DNA from: Microcoleus sp.
GTDB lineage: Bacteria; Cyanobacteriota; Cyanobacteriia; Cyanobacteriales; Microcoleaceae
Assembly (NCBI GenBank): GCA_042408215.1
Contig: JAYFMW010000010.1
Coordinates: forward strand, 64,001-128,000
Direction of reading: 5' to 3'
Length of the DNA: 64,000 nt
The position numbers and the translations under genes were made by a program. Positions 24,533 through 54,887 of the stretch are shown piece after piece (position 1 is the first letter of the stretch; each line of letters starts with the position of its first letter). Under the pieces are notes generated by a model. It searched no databases. It had not been told where the DNA came from and saw nothing but the letters and a program-made list of their open reading frames with translations.

Positions 24533-24676
24533 TTTACAAATCGTTCCAAAACGCTACACTTCTACAAATCATAAGGCAAACTTCAGGCTTATGCTTAACA
24601 ACAGTAACCAACTAGAGCATCAACGCCCTAGTTTAAGGCCACACAACACAACTCAACTGTTTTCACCGCCAAAACC

Positions 24677-24925
24677 GTCAGGAACCCCGTTCTTAAGAGA
24701 CGGGGCTTGTAAGAGTAATCAAACAAGCCGTTCTGACCAGCTATCGTCTTAACTGACTACGTTTTTTGAGTCACGACACCGGGCGAATGCGAAGCTAGTT
24801 CCTTGCTCTGTCGCTGGTGGTTAAACAGTTTTAAGGTCACTGAAACAGTGCTGCCAGCCGGCGCAAGCTCATTAAACATTGGCGAAGCTAACATTACCCC
24901 GAAAGGGAGGCTACCTAAGTAGCAA
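24677..24925 (+). ncRNA. HEARO / omega-RNA scaffold
   Basis: Motifs GACCAGC, GACTACGTT, ACACC..GAATGC..GCTAGTTCC..GCTCTGT, GTTAAACAG, ACAGTG, AACATTGGCGAAG, TTACCCCGAAAGGGAG; compensatory changes relative to the second copy. Confidence 0.8.
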
Positions 24926-25076
24926 AACACTATGCGATCGCGGGCTGTAAGATTTGAAACGGTAACTGTCCCGTTGAAAGTGCATTACAAAAGTACACCG
25001 AATTAAGCAGTCCCAAGGCGGTAGTGATAACTGTAAAGCCGTCCTAAAAGGACGGGGTTTCAAACCCATTTTTCTG
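24677..25076 (+). mobile_element. 400-bp non-autonomous IS200/IS605 (IscB-type) element lacking iscB
   Basis: 5' end GTCA plus hairpin CCCCGTTC-TTAA-GAGACGGGG; 3' hairpin AAAGCCGTCC-TAAAA-GGACGGGGTTTC then ATGA; homologous copy at 38291-38690. Confidence 0.85.
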
Positions 25077-25928
25077 ATGATTGAAAAAATATTAGTAGCC
25101 GTCGCCGGTCGCGGTCTGTGCGAAGAGATGTTTAATATGTTGATGGACATCCCTTCCTTGCAAAAAACCTCTGTCACCGTCTTGCACGTCGTGCCGCCCC
25201 AAGTAACATCCGATGGTATGGCCGACAAGTTGGAAGAAGGAGGCAAGATTTTAGCACAAGCCATCCAATCCTTAAAAATAGATCCCAGCAGAGTTAATCC
25301 TCGACTCAAACAGGGAGACCCCAAAACCACAGTTTGCCAAGTCGCAGAAGAAGAACAATCCGACTTAGTAATCATGGGTTCGCGGGGATTTGGCAGACTG
25401 CAATCAATTCTGGAAAATTCGGTCAGTCAGTACGTTTTCCAGCTAACATCCCGGCCGATGCTGTTGGTAAAAGACGACATTTACGTCAAAAAAATCAAGC
25501 GCGTCATGGTAGCGATCGACAAATCCGAATCCGCCAAACAATCCTTGGATCTAGCCCTATCTTTAGTCAAAGAAGTTGACGGCGGACAGATAATTTTAGT
25601 ACACGTCACCAAAGATTTGACCGGAAAATCCACTGAAGATTTAACAGCAGGTGCTGAAAAAGACCCCGTACTAGCGCCCGCAGTAGCACTCGCGAAACAA
25701 ATGGGAGTTAGCTACCGCTGTGCGAGCGCCACAGGCAAGCCAGGGGAAACAATTTGTCGGTTTACAGACGAAATGAACGCCGACTTATTAGTGATTGGTT
25801 CACCCGATCGCCGTCCTAGCGTTGCCAAGTCCTTTATCGATCTCGATCGACTCCTCGGAAACTCTCTGTCAGACTACGTGCGAGTCTACGCCAATTGTCC
25901 CGTATTGCTAGCCCGGACGACCGGCTAA
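25077..25928 (+). CDS. Tandem-domain universal stress protein
   Basis: KILVAV, DLVIMGSRG, second domain RVMVAID..DLLVIGS..CPVLL. Confidence 0.9.
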   Translation: MIEKILVAVAGRGLCEEMFNMLMDIPSLQKTSVTVLHVVPPQVTSDGMADKLEEGGKILAQAIQSLKIDPSRVNPRLKQGDPKTTVCQVAEEEQSDLVIMGSRGFGRLQSILENSVSQYVFQLTSRPMLLVKDDIYVKKIKRVMVAIDKSESAKQSLDLALSLVKEVDGGQIILVHVTKDLTGKSTEDLTAGAEKDPVLAPAVALAKQMGVSYRCASATGKPGETICRFTDEMNADLLVIGSPDRRPSVAKSFIDLDRLLGNSLSDYVRVYANCPVLLARTTG

Positions 25929-32133: not shown

Positions 32134-32166
32134 GCGATTTGTATTCATTATGGGCGATCGATTCCC

Positions 32167-32786
32167 CTAGCGCGTGTTTTGAAACCCGGAGATCCCCCCT
32201 AGCCCCCCTTAAGAAGGGGGGGACAAGAGAGCATTCAAAGTCACCCCCTACTCCCCTTCTTAAGGGGGATTTAGGGCGATCGAACCCTGGATAAAAACGA
32301 TAAAAACACAAAAAACTCAAAGTCACCCCCTACTCCCCTTCTTAAGGGGGATTTAGGGCGATCGAACCCTGGATAAAAACGATAAAAACACAAAAAACTC
32401 AAAGTCACCCCCTACTCCCCTTCTTAAGGGGGATTTAGGGCGATCGAACCCTGGATAAAAACGATAAAAACACAAAAAACTCAAAGTCACCCCCTACTCC
32501 CCTTCTTAAGGGGGATTTAGGGGGATCGAAACTTCGATACAAACGAGAGAAACCCAAGAAAACTCAAAGTCACCCCCTACTCCCCTTCTTAAGGGGGATT
32601 TAGGGGGATCGAAACTTCGATACAAACGACGAAACCCAAGAAAACTCAAAGTCACCCCCTACTCCCCTTCTTAAGGGGGATTTAGGGAGATCGAAACTTG
32701 GACACAAACGATAGAAACCCAGGAAAACTCAAAGTCCCCCTTCTTAAGGGGGATTTAGGGGGATCGAACCCTCGATACCAACGAGA
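32167..32786. repeat. CCCCCTTCTTAAGGGGG palindromic element amplified into 7 tandem ~82-bp units
   Basis: AAAGTC unit starts at 32237, 32319, 32401, 32483, 32566, 32648 and 32731; single-unit relative at 39777-39915. Confidence 0.9.
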
Positions 32787-32846
32787 TTTCCGAAAGTACA
32801 AATTAAATTAAGCTCAACTCATCTCTTCCATTCACCAATAAAATCA

Positions 32847-36703: not shown

Positions 36704-38290
36704 CTACACAACCACTTCGACTTTCACCTCATCTTCGAGCGCGATTTTCTCCTGCAAAAACAGTGCGACTTGCTCCTCAATTTCTCGCCTCACAATATCG
36801 CGATACTCCACAAAGTGCTCGATTTGCGCGCATACCGCCAGATAACTACTCACCCCACCTAAATTGTATCGGCACATATTCCAGAGATTGCGCCAAAACT
36901 GCCAACGAGTTTTGCGGATGAAACCCTGCCGCCAACAGATAGTCAAAAAGGCACGAATCACGATCCAATCGATCGGTTTATTTGCCCTTTTCCCTTTATT
37001 TGGATAAGTCGCTTCGCCCAGAATACGGTAGTGTCGATAAGCGCGATCGAGAAATTTTTCTGGATCGTACAATTCGTCGAATGCCTCGACAAATTCGCGG
37101 GCAATTTCTTCTAGCGGGCGAGTCGGGACAAAATTCATCAACGTAGTTTGGTTGATATTAGCAGATTTACTGCGAAGCCGCCCTTCCTTTGCCAGTCGAT
37201 GCCAGAGTGCTGTATCCGGCAAGGCTTGCAGCATACTAAACAGTGCAGTCGGAATTGAAGTTTGCTCGACAAACTTGACAATTCTCGCCCCAGCACCTGT
37301 TTTCTCGCCATCAAAGCCGATGATGAAACCAGCCATTACTCGCAAGCCCGATCGGGTAATTGCTAGTACGGCATCGCCGAGAGAATCTCGCGTGTTTTGA
37401 TGTTTTTGAGTCAGCTTTAAACTCTCTTCATCTGGTGTTTCAATTCCCAGAAATACAGCACCAAAATTGCATTGCACCATCATATCCATTAATTCTTGAT
37501 CCTGTGCTATATCGACAGATGCTTCCGTCGCAAAGGAGAAAGGATATTGATGCTCTACCATCCAGGGTAGGAGCTCTTTTAGAAACAGTTTGACATTGCG
37601 TTTATTCCCGATAAAATTATCATCAACCATGAAAATGCTGCGCCGCCAGCCTAACTCATAAAGGCGGTTGAGTTCATTGAGCAATTGTTCTGGTGCTTTG
37701 GTGCGCGGTTTGCGGCCGTAGAGGACAATGATGTCACAGAATTCGCACTGGAAAGGACATCCCCGCGAAAATTGTACCGACATTTCGGCATAAGCATCAA
37801 ATTGCAGCAAATCAAATCGAGGAATCGGGGTGGTGGTAACATCTGGCCTTTCGCCGTTGGCGCGGAATATGCCAGATTGTTCACCTCGGGCGATCGCATC
37901 CACAAACATTGGTAAAGTAATTTCACCCTCATCTAGAATCAAATAATCTGTGCCAACATCTGTCACTTCGTTGGGTAAAGCGGTAGGATAGGGGCCGCCC
38001 ACAGCAACTCGTTTACCCCGCCGTTTTGCTTCCTGAATCTGAGCTAATAAATCTTCCTTTTGGACGATCATCGCAGACAGAATCACCAATTCTGCCCAAT
38101 CCCAGTCAGCTTCTGTCACTGAACTTACATTGCGATCGACTAACTTGAATTCCCATGCTTGGGGTAAAATAGCGGCTACTGTTACCAATCCTAGCGGGGG
38201 TAGCATGGCTTTGCGATCGAGTAATGCTAGGGTTTTCTCAAACGACCAAAAGCTTTTGGGAAAGAGAGGATAGAGGAGTAAAACATTCAT
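36704..38290 (-). CDS. B12-binding radical SAM protein (DUF4070 C-terminus)
   Basis: PPLGL, VAVGGPY, SRGCPFQCEFC, VDDNF, GFIIGFD. Confidence 0.9.
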   Translation of the reverse strand: MNVLLLYPLFPKSFWSFEKTLALLDRKAMLPPLGLVTVAAILPQAWEFKLVDRNVSSVTEADWDWAELVILSAMIVQKEDLLAQIQEAKRRGKRVAVGGPYPTALPNEVTDVGTDYLILDEGEITLPMFVDAIARGEQSGIFRANGERPDVTTTPIPRFDLLQFDAYAEMSVQFSRGCPFQCEFCDIIVLYGRKPRTKAPEQLLNELNRLYELGWRRSIFMVDDNFIGNKRNVKLFLKELLPWMVEHQYPFSFATEASVDIAQDQELMDMMVQCNFGAVFLGIETPDEESLKLTQKHQNTRDSLGDAVLAITRSGLRVMAGFIIGFDGEKTGAGARIVKFVEQTSIPTALFSMLQALPDTALWHRLAKEGRLRSKSANINQTTLMNFVPTRPLEEIAREFVEAFDELYDPEKFLDRAYRHYRILGEATYPNKGKRANKPIDWIVIRAFLTICWRQGFIRKTRWQFWRNLWNMCRYNLGGVSSYLAVCAQIEHFVEYRDIVRREIEEQVALFLQEKIALEDEVKVEVVV

Positions 38291-38690
38291 CAGAAAAATG
38301 GGTTGAAACCCCGTCCTTTTAGGACGGCTTTACGATTTCACTACCGCCTTGGGGCTGTTTAATTTGGTGTACTTTTGTAATGTACTTTTGGTGGGACAGT
38401 TACCACCTCAAATTTCGCAGCCCTGTACGCATAGTGATTTGCTACCGAAGTAGCCTCCCTTTCGGGGTAAGGTTAGCTTGTCGGTCAATGTTATAAGAGC
38501 TTGTGCCGGCCGAAAGCACTGTTCCAGTGACCTTAGAACTGTTTAACCTTCAGCGACAGAGCGGGGAACTAGCTTCGCATTCCGGGGTGTCGTGACTCAA
38601 ATAACGTAGACCTCTAAAGTCTTAGGCTGGTCAGAATGGCTTGTTTGATTACTCTTACAAGCCCCGTCTCTTAAGAGCGGGGTTCCTGAC
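38291..38690 (-). mobile_element. Second 400-bp non-autonomous omega-RNA (HEARO) element
   Basis: Reverse complement begins GTCAGGAACCCCGCTCTTAAGAGACGGGGCTTG and ends AACCCATTTTTCTG|ATGA; colinear with 24677-25076. Confidence 0.85.
38440..38690 (-). ncRNA. HEARO / omega-RNA scaffold, copy 2
   Basis: Same motifs as copy 1, with compensatory substitutions in the stems. Confidence 0.8.
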
Positions 38691-40844: not shown

Positions 40845-40965
40845 TTTTTGTCAGTTCCTAGTTGTCAGTTTCTAGCAGTCAGTTTCTAGCAGTCAGTCAC
40901 CAGTTATCAGTTGATATCAAATCCGGTGGATTGTACAGGATATCTGTAGGGACACTCCAAGAGTC

Positions 40966-41157
40966 CATTGGTGTCAACTTAACGTTAAACCCAGTCACAG
41001 ATTGCTGTTTGACCATTAAATCTAGATCCCCCCTAGCCCCCCTTAAGAAGGGGGGGACAGGAGTATTCTTAAAGTCCCCCTTCTTAAGGGGGATTTAGGG
41101 GGATCTGGACTCAGGTAAAAACGAGAGATACCAAGGCTTTCAGGCGATTGTTGACAC
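40966..41157. mobile_element. MITE with CATTGGTGTCAACTTAA termini (IS4-like), inside a GTAGGGACACTC..GAGTGTCCCTAC REP
   Basis: Homologous to 41980, 54627 and 57738; right end degenerate. Confidence 0.7.
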
Positions 41158-42198: not shown

Positions 42199-42322
42199 AT
42201 CTTTGATTTTGACGAGGGAAGCGCGCAACGCGATACTTTGGGGAGGCATTTTCCGAGGTTGGGCGATCGAGGTTTGGGGAAAAATGAGATAGCTACAGCT
42301 AGCGGTGATTCGGGGGGGTAAA

Positions 42323-45300
42323 GTTTCAATCCCTGATAGGGTTTTAGGTGTTTTCCGGCATCAGCATCATAAACCCTCGAAATTCCATTCCGATCTAAAG
42401 TTTCAATCCCTGATAGGGTTTTAGGTGTTTTCCGGCGTAACCATAAATCCCATCGGTGCGAGTGCGACACCAGTTTCAATCCCTGATAGGGTTTTAGGTG
42501 TTTTCCGGCGCGAGGCTGTGACCCATTTGCTTCGCAGCCAGCGAGTTTCAATCCCTGATAGGGTTTTAGGTGTTTTCCGGCACGAAATTCCTTGTAGTAG
42601 TGGCTCTACATCCGGTTTCAATCCCTGATAGGGTTTTAGGTGTTTTCCGGCCAGTCCACCAGTTGGAATCCTTGCTGCACCTTGTTTCAATCCCTGATAG
42701 GGTTTTAGGTGTTTTCCGGCCGAGAAAGCGATCGCCCACCGTGAGCAATCGCGGAGTTTCAATCCCTGATAGGGTTTTAGGTGTTTTCCGGCTCGCCATC
42801 CTGAATTAGTTCCAATTGATGCAATTGTTTCAATCCCTGATAGGGTTTTAGGTGTTTTCCGGCCTGCGATCGCGTCGTACACTGTTCCCCATAAGTGGTT
42901 TATAGGAAAACCCCGGCGCTTAGTTAGCCTATCCCCTGCGATCGCGTCGTACACTGTTCCCCATAAGTGGTTTCAATCCCTGATAGGGTTTTAGGTGTTT
43001 TCCGGCACCAGAGCCGCAAAACGCGCGGGAAGAAGAAGCAGTTTCAATCCCTGATAGGGTTTTAGGTGTTTTCCGGCTGGATGAGCTTAGTTGCGCATCG
43101 CCAGATCGGTTTCAATCCCTGATAGGGTTTTAGGTGTTTTCCGGCGACGCTTCCTTCGTAGCCTGTTGCTGTATATTGGTTTCAATCCCTGATAGGGTTT
43201 TAGGTGTTTTCCGGCCAGCAACGGTAAAATCGCTAACAATTTATGAAGTTTCAATCCCTGATAGGGTTTTAGGTGTTTTCCGGCTTGGAATACGTGCCAC
43301 AGGAAGTGGGACCTTGCGCGTTTCAATCCCTGATAGGGTTTTAGGTGTTTTCCGGCCCAGAAAGTGATCGTTACTTGAGGCATTTGCTGCGTTTCAATCC
43401 CTGATAGGGTTTTAGGTGTTTTCCGGCACCATGCTTTCACATTCTGCTCAAATAATCATGTTTCAATCCCTGATAGGGTTTTAGGTGTTTTCCGGCACAC
43501 CCAACAAACACCGGCAAACCGAGGCGGGCGACGTTTCAATCCCTGATAGGGTTTTAGGTGTTTTCCGGCGGCACCGGCAACGACTTACACAACCTCGAAT
43601 AATGCAGCGTTTCAATCCCTGATAGGGTTTTAGGTGTTTTCCGGCGCGTGGAGTTGCAGCGGGACATAAAAGCCTCGAAGTTTCAATCCCTGATAGGGTT
43701 TTAGGTGTTTTCCGGCGTCAATCAGAACTTTGCCGAATAAGCTACTGCATATCGTTTCAATCCCTGATAGGGTTTTAGGTGTTTTCCGGCTACGTTGCCG
43801 CTGAGTTCGGCAAGTCGTCTTGTGTTTCAATCCCTGATAGGGTTTTAGGTGTTTTCCGGCTTGTCGTGGCTGATGCGCGCGTGGTAGAATCGATGGTTTC
43901 AATCCCTGATAGGGTTTTAGGTGTTTTCCGGCAAATCTGTAGCTTCTTCTCAAGGATGGGCTTTAGTTTCAATCCCTGATAGGGTTTTAGGTGTTTTCCG
44001 GCGCAGCGGGACATAAAAGCCTCAAAAACGCGACCGCGGGTTTCAATCCCTGATAGGGTTTTAGGTGTTTTCCGGCGGTCAGCATCTCTGTTTGGCGATC
44101 GAGATATGAGTTTCAATCCCTGATAGGGTTTTAGGTGTTTTCCGGCACATCAGACCTGAGAATATCCTGGAATAGTTTGGGTTTCAATCCCTGATAGGGT
44201 TTTAGGTGTTTTCCGGCAAGTGTTGTAACCTTCCTCAAGTTTTTTAGCTGTTTCAATCCCTGATAGGGTTTTAGGTGTTTTCCGGCACGATTGCAGTAAA
44301 TAACATTATGTCTGAATATGTTTCAATCCCTGATAGGGTTTTAGGTGTTTTCCGGCGATTCGTGCAGACTTATCGCGTCACCATTACGTTTCAATCCCTG
44401 ATAGGGTTTTAGGTGTTTTCCGGCCTGGTGAAAGCCTTAAGAGATGAGCTTTTGGTGGGTTTCAATCCCTGATAGGGTTTTAGGTGTTTTCCGGCGTGAT
44501 TCTGATAATTCAGATCAGTCAGCGGCCGCTGAACTGGATGCGTTTCAATCCCTGATAGGGTTTTAGGTGTTTTCCGGCGCTCTTAATGAATATCAGAAAG
44601 CTATTAAAGATTAGTTTCAATCCCTGATAGGGTTTTAGGTGTTTTCCGGCGCGTAGAGAGCTTTGGGTGCAGCCAAGTACCTCCGTTTCAATCCCTGATA
44701 GGGTTTTAGGTGTTTTCCGGCTGAATAGGGATAACGGTGATTTGGTTGTTGAAGTTTCAATCCCTGATAGGGTTTTAGGTGTTTTCCGGCACCGCATAGA
44801 CTCGTCGCCCCGCAAGGCTTTTAGACGTTTCAATCCCTGATAGGGTTTTAGGTGTTTTCCGGCCGGTAAATCCGGTCACAGCATTACCCGCAGTTTGTTT
44901 CAATCCCTGATAGGGTTTTAGGTGTTTTCCGGCGATTGGAGCTCAGAAAATCTAGCCTCTTTCAGATTTAGTTTCAATCCCTGATAGGGTTTTAGGTGTT
45001 TTCCGGCCCAAGCAGTACGATCGCCTAGAAATCCTCACCGGTTTCAATCCCTGATAGGGTTTTAGGTGTTTTCCGGCGATCGCCTCTGGAGTAGGTGTTA
45101 TCCCAGGGACACTAGTTTCAATCCCTGATAGGGTTTTAGGTGTTTTCCGGCCTGACCAAGTGGTCGGTAAAAAAGATCGCCAGAGAGTTTCAATCCCTGA
45201 TAGGGTTTTAGGTGTTTTCCGGCCGCGAACGATGGCGCTCAGGGCTACAATTCGGGCAAAGTTTCAATCCCTGATAGGGTTTTAGGTGTTTTCCGGCCTG

Positions 45301-48157
45301 CGAAGTATGCCGAGCTTGGCGCTTCTTACCGGCGTTTCAATCCCTGATAGGGTTTTAGGTGTTTTCCGGCATTTGACCATGATCTGCTTGGACTCTTCGG
45401 AGCACGGTTTCAATCCCTGATAGGGTTTTAGGTGTTTTCCGGCCCTCAGTGACTCGCAAACTCTGCTCAATTTAGTGTTTCAATCCCTGATAGGGTTTTA
45501 GGTGTTTTCCGGCCGCGAATAGCCGCAATCAGCTTATGTCAAACAATGTTTCAATCCCTGATAGGGTTTTAGGTGTTTTCCGGCGAGTCGCAAGACTTGT
45601 CTGCGTTCCATATACGCGTTTCAATCCCTGATAGGGTTTTAGGTGTTTTCCGGCTAGTGGATCCCGTGCCTAAATTGAGGTTCAGAATAGTTTCAATCCC
45701 TGATAGGGTTTTAGGTGTTTTCCGGCAGCCGTTGCTGATACTTTGCACAGGCTGAAATGGAGTGTTTCAATCCCTGATAGGGTTTTAGGTGTTTTCCGGC
45801 TCATAGCACGATACCAGGATACTAACTATCTGTTGTTTCAATCCCTGATAGGGTTTTAGGTGTTTTCCGGCTTTACCGCTAGTTCTTCAAGCCTGCTACT
45901 TGAAGGTTTCAATCCCTGATAGGGTTTTAGGTGTTTTCCGGCAAGTTTTCCTCTATTCTGCTGGGTTTTAGCTCGGGTTTCAATCCCTGATAGGGTTTTA
46001 GGTGTTTTCCGGCAAATAGGACAATACTACCATAGCATAAACCAATGGTTTCAATCCCTGATAGGGTTTTAGGTGTTTTCCGGCAATCTAAAAAAACCAC
46101 CCTCAAGAATAGCACTGTATCGTTTCAATCCCTGATAGGGTTTTAGGTGTTTTCCGGCCAGAGTAGATCCAAAAATTGCCCCATCCCCACAAGTTTCAAT
46201 CCCTGATAGGGTTTTAGGTGTTTTCCGGCGCAACCCCCGTTGGGTCTCCAGCAACCGTTACCGGTTTCAATCCCTGATAGGGTTTTAGGTGTTTTCCGGC
46301 AAATGTTTGTGAACCTAAACCACCAACTCCTTCTCCGTTTCAATCCCTGATAGGGTTTTAGGTGTTTTCCGGCATTTGCCGGCAAATACTTTGCTGGGTA
46401 GGGATACGTTTCAATCCCTGATAGGGTTTTAGGTGTTTTCCGGCCATTAGTGGACAAACAATTGCATACCATCCATAACTGTTTCAATCCCTGATAGGGT
46501 TTTAGGTGTTTTCCGGCTTAGAAAAAAATGTGCCTGTACCCGCCGGACTGCATGTTTCAATCCCTGATAGGGTTTTAGGTGTTTTCCGGCTGATTGAACG
46601 CCTACACTTGTCGCAAAAATAGCTAGTTTCAATCCCTGATAGGGTTTTAGGTGTTTTCCGGCAGAGTATTTGTCCTCTTTTTTGAATGGTTACAATCGTA
46701 AGTTTCAATCCCTGATAGGGTTTTAGGTGTTTTCCGGCATTGTATTGGGCGGTGGCAGAAGCAATCCGAGGTTGTTTCAATCCCTGATAGGGTTTTAGGT
46801 GTTTTCCGGCTCGATCGCAAAAATAATACAGGAGACTGGAATGAGTTTCAATCCCTGATAGGGTTTTAGGTGTTTTCCGGCCCGTTTTGGCCATATTATC
46901 GCCGTCAATGGTTTTGTTTCAATCCCTGATAGGGTTTTAGGTGTTTTCCGGCTTGCTGAAACCGACCGCCGGAAATGCTACTGCCGGTTTCAATCCCTGA
47001 TAGGGTTTTAGGTGTTTTCCGGCTTGTACTCTAGAATCAAGCCTTATACAGAGAGATTGTTTCAATCCCTGATAGGGTTTTAGGTGTTTTCCGGCGCAAA
47101 CCCATCACAATGCCACCAGATTCAATCAGTTTCAATCCCTGATAGGGTTTTAGGTGTTTTCCGGCTTAATTAAGAGTCGCGACGACGCTAAGGGTTGGGT
47201 TTCAATCCCTGATAGGGTTTTAGGTGTTTTCCGGCTGAATCCTTTCCTACCTTGAAGTAGTGCTGGCGTTTCAATCCCTGATAGGGTTTTAGGTGTTTTC
47301 CGGCAAAAAACTCGCTGCAATATTTGGAGAGCGCGTCAGTTTCAATCCCTGATAGGGTTTTAGGTGTTTTCCGGCGTCGATTTGTAATCAGAGTCTATTT
47401 CATTGGAAGTTTCAATCCCTGATAGGGTTTTAGGTGTTTTCCGGCGCGGTGGCAACTTCATTACCATTCAATGACCAAGTGTTTCAATCCCTGATAGGGT
47501 TTTAGGTGTTTTCCGGCATGCAGGCAAGAAATTTCATGAGGATAAAAATCTGTTTCAATCCCTGATAGGGTTTTAGGTGTTTTCCGGCACAACAACGGGG
47601 TAGCCCAACTAAATACGCTTGTCAGTTTCAATCCCTGATAGGGTTTTAGGTGTTTTCCGGCCTTCCTGTTTGAGTGCAAGCAAGACAGGATTTGAGTTTC
47701 AATCCCTGATAGGGTTTTAGGTGTTTTCCGGCTTGGGCACTGAGTGCAACACTCGGCTGTTAAAGGTGTTTCAATCCCTGATAGGGTTTTAGGTGTTTTC
47801 CGGCGGTTGATCGTGGGGGCGATCGGTGCGGCCGCAAGGTTTCAATCCCTGATAGGGTTTTAGGTGTTTTCCGGCGCGCAAGCCCAGCTGCAAAAACAGT
47901 CATACAAAGTTTCAATCCCTGATAGGGTTTTAGGTGTTTTCCGGCCTTTAATGTTCGGTCTAAGGCGCGCACGGATTCTGTTTCAATCCCTGATAGGGTT
48001 TTAGGTGTTTTCCGGCGCTAGCCCCATTACTCCCGGCGGGAGTCATCCGGTTTCAATCCCTGATAGGGTTTTAGGTGTTTTCCGGCTGCAAGTTGGCGCT
48101 CGGAATTCTGTAAACTCCGCGTTTCAATCCCTGATAGGGTTTTAGGTGTTTTCCGGC
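42323..48157 (-). CRISPR. CRISPR array with no cas genes in the window: 81 copies of a 37-bp repeat, probably type I-D
   Basis: Plus-strand repeat GTTTCAATCCCTGATAGGGTTTTAGGTGTTTTCCGGC; crRNA sense GCCGGAAAACACCTAAAACCCTATCAGGGATTGAAAC with a CCCT/AGGG hairpin and ATTGAAAC handle; counted by hand; spacers ~31-46 bp plus one 106-bp anomaly. Confidence 0.97.
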
Positions 48158-48420
48158 CGCCGGTGTTTGAAACCGTTGCTGTATTTGGTTTTCGAGGTTC
48201 GTTTGCGTCTGCATAAACTAAAAATACCATTTCAGCCTCCACCTGTCAATATCCTATTTTGACTTTTATCTTCAAACCCTTGTCAGACAAGGGCTTCAGC
48301 ATTTGCGTCTGCCCTGTATTCCCGGAATCGGCATCAAACCCTTACAGCAATTGCATTACAGCCCCAAAAATTAACCCCTCGATTTTTACACCTAGCAACA
48401 GACGCAATTTTACAAAAAAA
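48158..48420 (-). promoter_or_regulatory. CRISPR leader
   Basis: Non-coding region adjacent to the 5' end of the first repeat in crRNA sense; contains repeated TTTGCGTCTGC and AAACCCTT motifs. Confidence 0.7.
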
Positions 48421-54626: not shown

Positions 54627-54823
54627 CATTGGTGTCAACTTAAGCCTGAAAGCCCTGAGAAATCTGGTTTTTACCTGAGTCTAGATCCCCCTAAATCCCC
54701 CTTAAGAAGGGGGACTTTGAGAAGACTCTTGTCCCCCCCTTGGGAAGGGGGGCTAGGGGGGATCTAGATTTAATAGTCAAACAACAGTCTCTGACTGGGT
54801 TTGACCTTAAGTTGACACCTATG
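54627..54823. mobile_element. MITE, CATTGGTGTCAACTTAAG family, with a 9-bp target duplication inside a REP
   Basis: GGCACTGCC at 54618-54626 and 54824-54832; flanks rebuild GTAGGGCAGGGCACTGCCGTGTCCCTAC. Confidence 0.85.
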
Positions 54824-54887
54824 GGCACTGCCGTGTCCCTACCATATTTCATCCGATGAAAAACTGCCATACCACCCAAAACTCATC

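Follow-up and report, generated by a model that had tools for sequence, protein, structure and literature searches.

Standalone omega-RNAs, which are mobilised and function in trans with IscB, have already been described, and the published passages that treat them call their role unknown (PMC10691335; PMC9581776; citing Altae-Tran 2021). According to the relevant sections of Meers et al. (bioRxiv 10.1101/2023.03.14.532601), PATEs often encode omega-RNAs, the guide comes from the 5' flank side, the omega-RNA of IscB depends on an outside promoter, and IscB elements are biased in orientation, through either insertion or retention; covariation between DNA guide and target is described there for IS608 and ISGst elements. 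As excerpted, the account of the ISC elements of Microcystis gives them 5'-GTCA ends and insertion between N and ATGA (Kapitonov 2016, PMC4810608), and that of the IsrB omega-RNA describes adaptor and nexus pseudoknots, whose disruption by mutation abolishes activity (PMC9581776). Trans-acting standalone omega-RNAs and the ATGA target are therefore on record; less known are the two features that we add here to the original prediction for this locus, namely that the ATGA is the start codon of a host gene (usp) and that the element carries a second conserved RNA structure at 24928-25026 (module B). No report of either was found in the literature covered, outside which lie supplements and the 2009 HEARO and 2021 OMEGA papers, any of which might mention one or the other; the term 'start codon' does not occur in the main text of Kapitonov 2016 (PMC4810608), and the portions of PMC13565253, PMC9755519 and PMC8987985 consulted held nothing further specific to the element.

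A protein-free element between the usp leader and its start codon

We analysed a stretch of 64,000 nucleotides (the window) from a cyanobacterial genome of 7.36 Mb, in which a 400-bp nuclease-less transposon with a HEARO-like scaffold (copy 1) had been predicted, together with a second copy. The features are as follows.

24533..24560, + strand: sigma-70-like site, likely host promoter (one consensus match, with 0.4 expected by chance, a weak call)
24657..24676, + strand: predicted guide, about 20 nt (inferred length) at the end of the native usp leader, host DNA
24677..25076, + strand: whole protein-free IS200/IS605 (ISC-type) element, 400 bp, inserted between N and ATGA without target duplication
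24677..24897, + strand: HEARO / omega-RNA scaffold (Rfam RF02033, 141.2 bits, model positions 1-211)
24677..24709, + strand: right end, with terminal GTCA, hairpin 24685-24705 and DNA-guide tetranucleotide CTTG at 24706-24709 (from sequence)
24684-24686 with 24835-24837, + strand: pseudoknot 1, adaptor-type by analogy (covariation in 87 protein-free rows)
24793-24796 with 24886-24889, + strand: pseudoknot 2, nexus-type by analogy (covariation in 87 protein-free rows)
24898..24923, + strand: two small 3' hairpins downstream of the HEARO scaffold
24928..25026, + strand: module B, a long stem of about 100 nt capped by a three-way junction (pair covariation)
25039..25076, + strand: left end, with TnpA hairpin 25039-25055, DNA-guide tetranucleotide TTTC at 25058-25061 and a pyrimidine-rich tail
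25077..25080, + strand: target motif / TAM ATGA, the usp start codon (orthologues begin at the same Met)
25077..25928, + strand: host gene usp, tandem universal stress protein, 283 aa, intact (Pfam Usp PF00582)
36704-38290, - strand: B12 radical SAM gene, host of copy 2 (Pfam)
38291..38690, - strand: copy 2, with anatomy like that of copy 1, on the start codon of the B12 radical SAM gene (exact empty site in the genome G008)

The predicted limits of copy 1 proved exact, as fixed by empty sites. Among 22 same-genus usp loci, one of which lacked the gene start, the site was empty in 20 of the 21 informative loci and filled in one (G005). At the closest empty locus (G008, 99% protein identity) the letters of the guide, at the position originally proposed, run straight into ATGA; since empty sites join guide to ATGA, the element spans exactly 24677-25076, made no target duplication and abuts the orthologous ATG start. 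The identical insertion site is occupied in G005 and L119, where the copy differs from copy 1 only in four patch alleles, which are present in paralogues. One of these alleles disrupts the pair 24741/24882, and imperfect folds thus persist at the usp site. Inside module B, window positions 24934-24941 hold an octamer allele, which we take to be the cyanobacterial HIP1; the orthologous copy in G005/L119 and most paralogues carry another allele. Start-codon accessibility by folding was 0.48 filled versus 0.60 native, a difference too small for use.

The Rfam HEARO search proposed as a check returned 141.2 bits against a gathering score of 83, with all 211 model positions covered. The expected IS200/IS605 end hairpins lie at 24685-24705 and 25039-25055, subterminally and with no terminal inverted repeats, and both copies sit beside a fixed motif without duplication according to their empty sites, as in non-autonomous, PATE-like IS200/IS605 elements. 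That the element lacks iscB was also confirmed, with no RRXRR (iscB) match at the site and no open reading frame (ORF) of at least 80 aa on the + strand inside the element; with no iscB or isrB ORF between the omega-RNA and the left end, copy 1 is not itself an ISC member, though it resembles an ISC derivative. On the - strand, an ORF of 154 aa (24911-25375) runs for the most part antisense to usp. A coding role for the 3' part was considered and rejected, given that copy 2 does not keep the frame of its 24-codon ORF, which starts at 24933. Between scaffold and ATGA lie 179 bases, closed by the hairpin and TTTTTCTG, which terminates at 25076, and the left-end tail has no Shine-Dalgarno (SD) motif in an anti-SD test. 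The first of the two small 3' hairpins also precedes iscB start codons in nuclease-bearing copies. The weak promoter match at 24533-24560 would probably transcribe guide, element and usp together.

The ends of the element follow the DNA-guide/target rule described for IS608 and ISGst elements. Of the left-end hairpins of this type (n = 37), those with TTTC have ATGA as their target in 12 of 12 cases and those with TTTT have ATAA in 22 of 25. An intact 132-aa Y1_Tnp (TnpA) is encoded elsewhere in the genome (C20:496116), followed by the same hairpin, CTTG and the target GTCA, so that the CTTG/GTCA couple is common to this tnpA element and the right end of copy 1. The shared hairpin points to compatibility between this TnpA and copy 1, which we infer with high confidence to be mobilised in trans by TnpA made elsewhere. 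In the DNA-type runs X1 and X4, whose contigs drop rare forms, no joint skipping 24677-25076 was present.

The window also holds a long CRISPR array at 42300-48200 (about 69 detected repeats of ~37 nt at ~72-nt spacing, unflagged by the Rfam gathering search) and a family of palindromic C-rich/G-rich repeats, dispersed as well as tandem (32153-32808, 40960-41157, 54632-54829 and others), with an 82-nt period at 32.2-32.8 kb.

Covariation in the scaffold and in module B

Long-range pairs and pseudoknots covary in sets of 38-87 protein-free copies, which supports selection on the RNA fold, as originally proposed. Rows were kept when the core measured 205-232 nt and began with GT, which left 38-39 of the 45 protein-free copies of the genome. 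Double changes occurred in 33 of 66 Rfam pairs (39 rows), and canonical cells numbered 2160, whereas none of 1000 shuffles exceeded 1983; this control takes no account of relatedness. The mean normalised mutual information of unpaired polymorphic columns was 0.10-0.14 at every distance (38 own rows) and 0.07-0.10 in 87 rows including other genomes; paired columns reached 0.54-0.94, with means of 0.59-0.92 in the 38 own rows. Pairs 100-141 nt apart were coupled in five of six cases in the own set, the sixth (24744/24879) standing at 0.03. The strongest couplings outside the Rfam structure were the two pseudoknots, both intact in copy 1 (n = 87 protein-free rows): 24686/24835 of pseudoknot 1, which lies outside the Rfam structure line, is C-G in 46, T-A in 33 and other in 8; 24793/24889 of pseudoknot 2 is A-T in 58, C-G in 25, T-A in 2 and other in 2; and 24796/24886, also of pseudoknot 2, is T-A in 63, C-G in 15, T-G in 3 and other in 6. 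The near absence of linkage between unpaired columns, set against the covariation of distant pairs and pseudoknots, argues for selection at the RNA level. The scaffold could, as originally proposed, load an IscB made elsewhere.

Copy 2 matches the whole HEARO model at 38690-38467 (-) with 139.4 bits. Three of the four compensatory examples first offered in comparing the copies are real double changes (copy 1 to copy 2: 24747/24756, T-A to A-T; 24817/24854, G-C to A-T, with 24818/24853, T-G to A-T; and 24831/24843, T-A to C-G), whereas the fourth, GCTAC-CTAA-GTAGC versus GCTAC-TTCG-GTAGC, swaps the loop on an identical stem and is not compensatory. In copy 2 the long-range pair 24741/24882 is lost (C-G to C-A), and 3 nt are inserted.

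Module B (24928-25026) folds into a long stem topped by a three-way junction, with a z score of -3.5 for 24896-25100. Across 63 sequences, double changes were seen at 19 of its 34 named pairs; the share of cells that pair, 90.9%, exceeded that of every one of 500 shuffles and of every slid control. Because the search pattern dictated the loop letters in most rows, the invariance of these letters carries no weight; likewise, of a loop-loop pairing UGU/ACA, three of four pairs are invariant with pattern-fixed letters, and the fourth is unpaired in 28 of 63. No Rfam family matched module B (best E 5.4), and its own model matches 24922-25034 in the window. The genome itself holds module B in 22 places, and it was found in 21 of 151 cyanobacterial genomes (three families); a core-only model added nothing new in 151 class-wide genomes, where a diverged form might escape models as narrow as these. 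It lies downstream of HEARO at 102 of 115 genome loci (9 more have too little flank) and at 109 of 122 metagenome loci (8 with too little flank). The five metagenome loci without HEARO gave no Rfam match and no intron family; by eye, two resemble a further element of omega-RNA type and two a further element with hairpin ends. At the metagenome loci L375 and L394, module B lies in another kind of element with hairpin ends, HEARO-free and, by eye, possibly TnpB-type; at L284, L299 and L071 it lies behind an omega-like RNA undetected by Rfam HEARO, ATGA-ended and possibly with an IsrB-type scaffold. An intron match occurred in one of the 20 loci inspected: there (L221:654-731, genome G168), a group II intron with an HNH-bearing ORF is inserted into a HEARO/module-B element on a start codon. 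As a guess, module B, which occupies the iscB slot, might stabilise or help to process a long untranslated RNA.

Partners, start-codon placement and explanations

The proposed count of genomic copies yielded 70 HEARO matches (64 above cut-off), 25 followed by an RRXRR (iscB) match and 45 not; matches were present in 24 of 24 same-genus genomes. The expectation of a cognate IscB was borne out. The genome encodes 16 iscB ORFs of more than 380 aa with RuvC and HNH motifs, and the two IscBs tested on NF040563 (C8:38348 and C3:407065; 468 and 462 bits) are intact and ATGA-ended, with HEARO cores 81% and 72% identical to that of copy 1; the best of these iscB-linked cores (81%) lacks the pseudoknot-1 pair in the alignment. 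However, no iscB element in the genome has the exact left end of copy 1. Beyond it, the combination of HEARO, iscB and this left end was matched as a pattern in 2 of 301 genomes of the order, and the full iscB parent that had been sought in relatives is complete in one of them, G356 (GTCAG start, HEARO, intact iscB, same hairpin, ATGA).

Protein-free copies pair either of two cargoes (A or B) in the iscB slot with either of two left ends, and every combination occurs. Cargo A, found in about half of them (e.g., C6:921701 and C28:196387), consists of short hairpins, two or three in number, with CAACCATA recurring in their loops, and looks like a protein-binding array. A HEARO tree by cargo and end type was poorly resolved (30 of 64 branches open) and was used for mosaicism only. 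A separate iscB family (C17:708317, C3:80659, C10:171009, C20:210669 and others) has a third left end, with a G-rich SD-like motif ~8 nt before ATGA, and 7 of its 11 ATGA-ended copies listed open ORFs of 60 or more codons. Tandem double left ends were seen in four copies (C28:196387, C30:557246, C30:230698 and C4:3521), the outer end ~100 nt further on and landing on a gene start in three of the four. At C30:395296 (-), a truncated element with module B and left end only sits on the start of a response regulator, directly after a gene that is presumably rsmH-like.

We located the element ends of 39 of the 45 protein-free copies, one wrongly (n = 38), and called a start codon where the end fell on an ATG opening at least 60 codons or a short known gene. 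By this measure 25 of 38 copies end on a start codon against a null of 18% (p about 1e-10), the null being the share of 15163 ATGA sites with non-coding DNA upstream that open 60 codons, as drawn from a crude self-trained gene caller (6321 genes) in the own genome only, with sites treated as independent. Pfam families were recognised in 22 of the 25 start-codon ORFs, including PetL, PetM, EF-G, signal peptidase, DAHP synthase and Psb27, and the N-termini of some other host genes suggest that they are psbA- and psbD-type; an in-frame ATG lies upstream in the reconstructed empty site of just one of the 25. Cargo-A copies are likewise found on start codons. Of the 13 copies that are not on a start codon, 11 have a sense gene downstream (null 45%, p 0.004), and for 14 of the 25 that are, the preceding gene is divergent (null 32%, p 0.01). 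Among module-B loci of other genomes, 50 of 74 unique sites open at least 60 codons (115 loci less 21 without a located end and 20 repeat sites; two of the 50 ends are mis-called a few bases early). A genome of another, Nostocales family (G176) had 10 of 16 copies on start codons, with 20 of its 23 matches taken in, and in G117 four of nine located ends open a long ORF, with 20 of 25 matches taken in and unreliable end calls.

These observations are, in our judgement, probably explained by a protein-free element moved by TnpA, which uses a host promoter to make a guide RNA for IscB produced elsewhere and whose copy is restored after excision. TnpA would peel the element from the template strand of the host gene and rejoin the native leader to ATGA. 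The omega-RNA would need transcription from outside, and only copies downstream of a host promoter would make the guide; on this, the simplest reading, only promoter-driven copies would be restored after excision. Guide-making copies would direct trans-acting IscB to cut the rejoined site, and recombination would copy the element back; silent copies would be lost and survivors would pile up on start codons, which are the ATGA sites certain to lie behind a promoter and where no reading frame is broken. The strand used by TnpA would be the template strand of the host, which offers no evident ground on which transcription would promote insertion. These data do not separate a preference at insertion from one at retention. 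An off-target guide role was rejected as a candidate: outside its own site, the genome has no exact 10-mer match followed by ATGA, longer lengths give one or two mismatched sites, and no regulatory target emerged.

An ordinary miniature passenger, moved by TnpA, with a HEARO fold inherited from iscB copies or refreshed by gene conversion from them and with start codons serving merely as accessible, A/T-rich and harmless ATGA sites, strikes us as improbable. It would account for the HEARO core that is identical between a module-B copy (C6:210182) and an iscB pseudogene copy (C23:24201), for the patch alleles between orthologous copies and for the decayed derivatives of the element, and it fits with the fact that no junction transcript was seen. 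Against this, coupling survives in two pseudoknots and in pairs separated by 100-141 nt where linkage over short distances has already gone, and pseudoknots play no part in the DNA hairpins read by TnpA. Intergenic ATGA sites, moreover, outnumber start ATGA sites by about 6 to 1 in the genome and sister elements with ATAA targets survive there in both orientations (13 versus 8, one undecided).

Transcription was assessed with contigs of the metatranscriptome RNA runs X14, X15, X16 and X17 and the DNA-type runs X1 and X4, a junction counting as bridged when 31 letters lay on the element side. RNA-run contigs cover the scaffold and usp, where scaffold depth sums all copies and contigs show neither starts nor strand; they leave 24558-24661 and, at 97% likeness, 24922-24947 uncovered. 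The leader-to-element (5') junction was spanned by no contig of the four RNA runs and was bridged in X1 and X4. Contigs of X14, X15 and X17 start in the left end (25051 or 25055), hold 22-26 letters of the element and continue into usp. These data bear on the idea that the element is removed or bypassed at the RNA level, by splicing or self-cleavage, module B being the ribozyme or the processing signal through which the host mRNA is restored or freed. Such a device would suit hosts of psbA-, psbD-, EF-G- and PetL/PetM-type, yet with an SD-like match at only 1 of 25 element ends, versus 5 of 25 native leaders and 34% of 1845 genome starts (two left-end types), and it would suit the strong conservation and fixed loops of module B. 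We nevertheless consider it quite unlikely: no joint skipping 24677-25076 occurred in any of the six runs (a weak splice test in the RNA runs, which lack cover of the 5' flank), contigs of X14, X15 and X17 instead run from the left end into usp, though with fewer than 31 letters of the element, Rfam gave no ribozyme match for the element and no intron family in the window, and about half of the protein-free copies have cargo A in place of module B and are on start codons as well. That the element is a domesticated regulatory leader of usp, in which module B senses a ligand or protein, is suggested by its 5'-UTR position and conserved three-way junction and is very improbable, as the element is absent at usp in 20 of 21 relatives, the downstream genes are functionally unrelated and module B travels with HEARO (102/115 and 109/122 loci) and not with a gene class.

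A broader form of the reading that we prefer, retention by a borrowed IscB, can be put forward tentatively: a widespread cyanobacterial protein-free family would be specialised in turning host leaders into IscB guides, landing on start codons, held there by trans-acting IscB and carrying module B as a new RNA device that separates guide RNA from mRNA or recruits ribosomes to a start without SD. If this were true, photosystem, cytochrome b6f and elongation-factor genes would keep working behind 400 structured bases. The family also offers mobile DNA a route to rewriting the translation-initiation regions of dozens of core genes in cyanobacteria. A guide, a target and a TAM can be predicted from every single copy, which makes the role of standalone omega-RNAs testable, and the start-codon pile-up would be the expected outcome of retention by a borrowed nuclease. 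The covariation offers sequence evidence that protein-free guide RNAs are selected for tertiary fold, the natural compensatory variants of both omega-RNA pseudoknots may be useful for IscB engineering, and module B is an uncatalogued structured RNA.

Comparison with described systems

Copy 1 is a full-length match to HEARO RF02033, from which it differs in having no HNH ORF behind it and in two covarying pseudoknots and a 3' module outside the Rfam structure. As far as the published passages describe them, ISC elements, like copy 1, share hairpin ends with TnpB elements of opposite orientation, and ISC1-1_MA of Microcystis aeruginosa has the same 5'-GTCA terminus and inserts upstream of ATGA without duplication (PMC4810608); unlike ISC1-1_MA, copy 1 has no IscB/IsrB ORF. 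IStrons, which combine a group I intron with IS605/IS607 (PMC13565253, in the part available), are alike in being mobile elements that are tolerated in a transcription unit and also yield a guide RNA, whereas copy 1 has no group I intron fold, showed no spliced joint and is inserted before the reading frame. The ISGst6-type IscB elements of Geobacillus stearothermophilus, in the sections of Meers et al. consulted, resemble the family studied here in the TAM TTCAT (ATGA on the RNA strand), TAM/DNA-guide covariation, dependence on an outside promoter and orientation bias; there the bias concerns the upstream gene and nuclease-bearing elements, and here the downstream start codon and protein-free elements. 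Closest are the standalone omega-RNAs and PATEs, which in the accounts consulted are likewise mobilised omega-RNAs without effector or transposase, with effector-bearing copies in the same genome. Unlike these, as far as those accounts go, the present family has a module of ~100 nt in the iscB slot, protein-free copies that outnumber iscB copies by 45 to 25, and two thirds of its placements on start codons.
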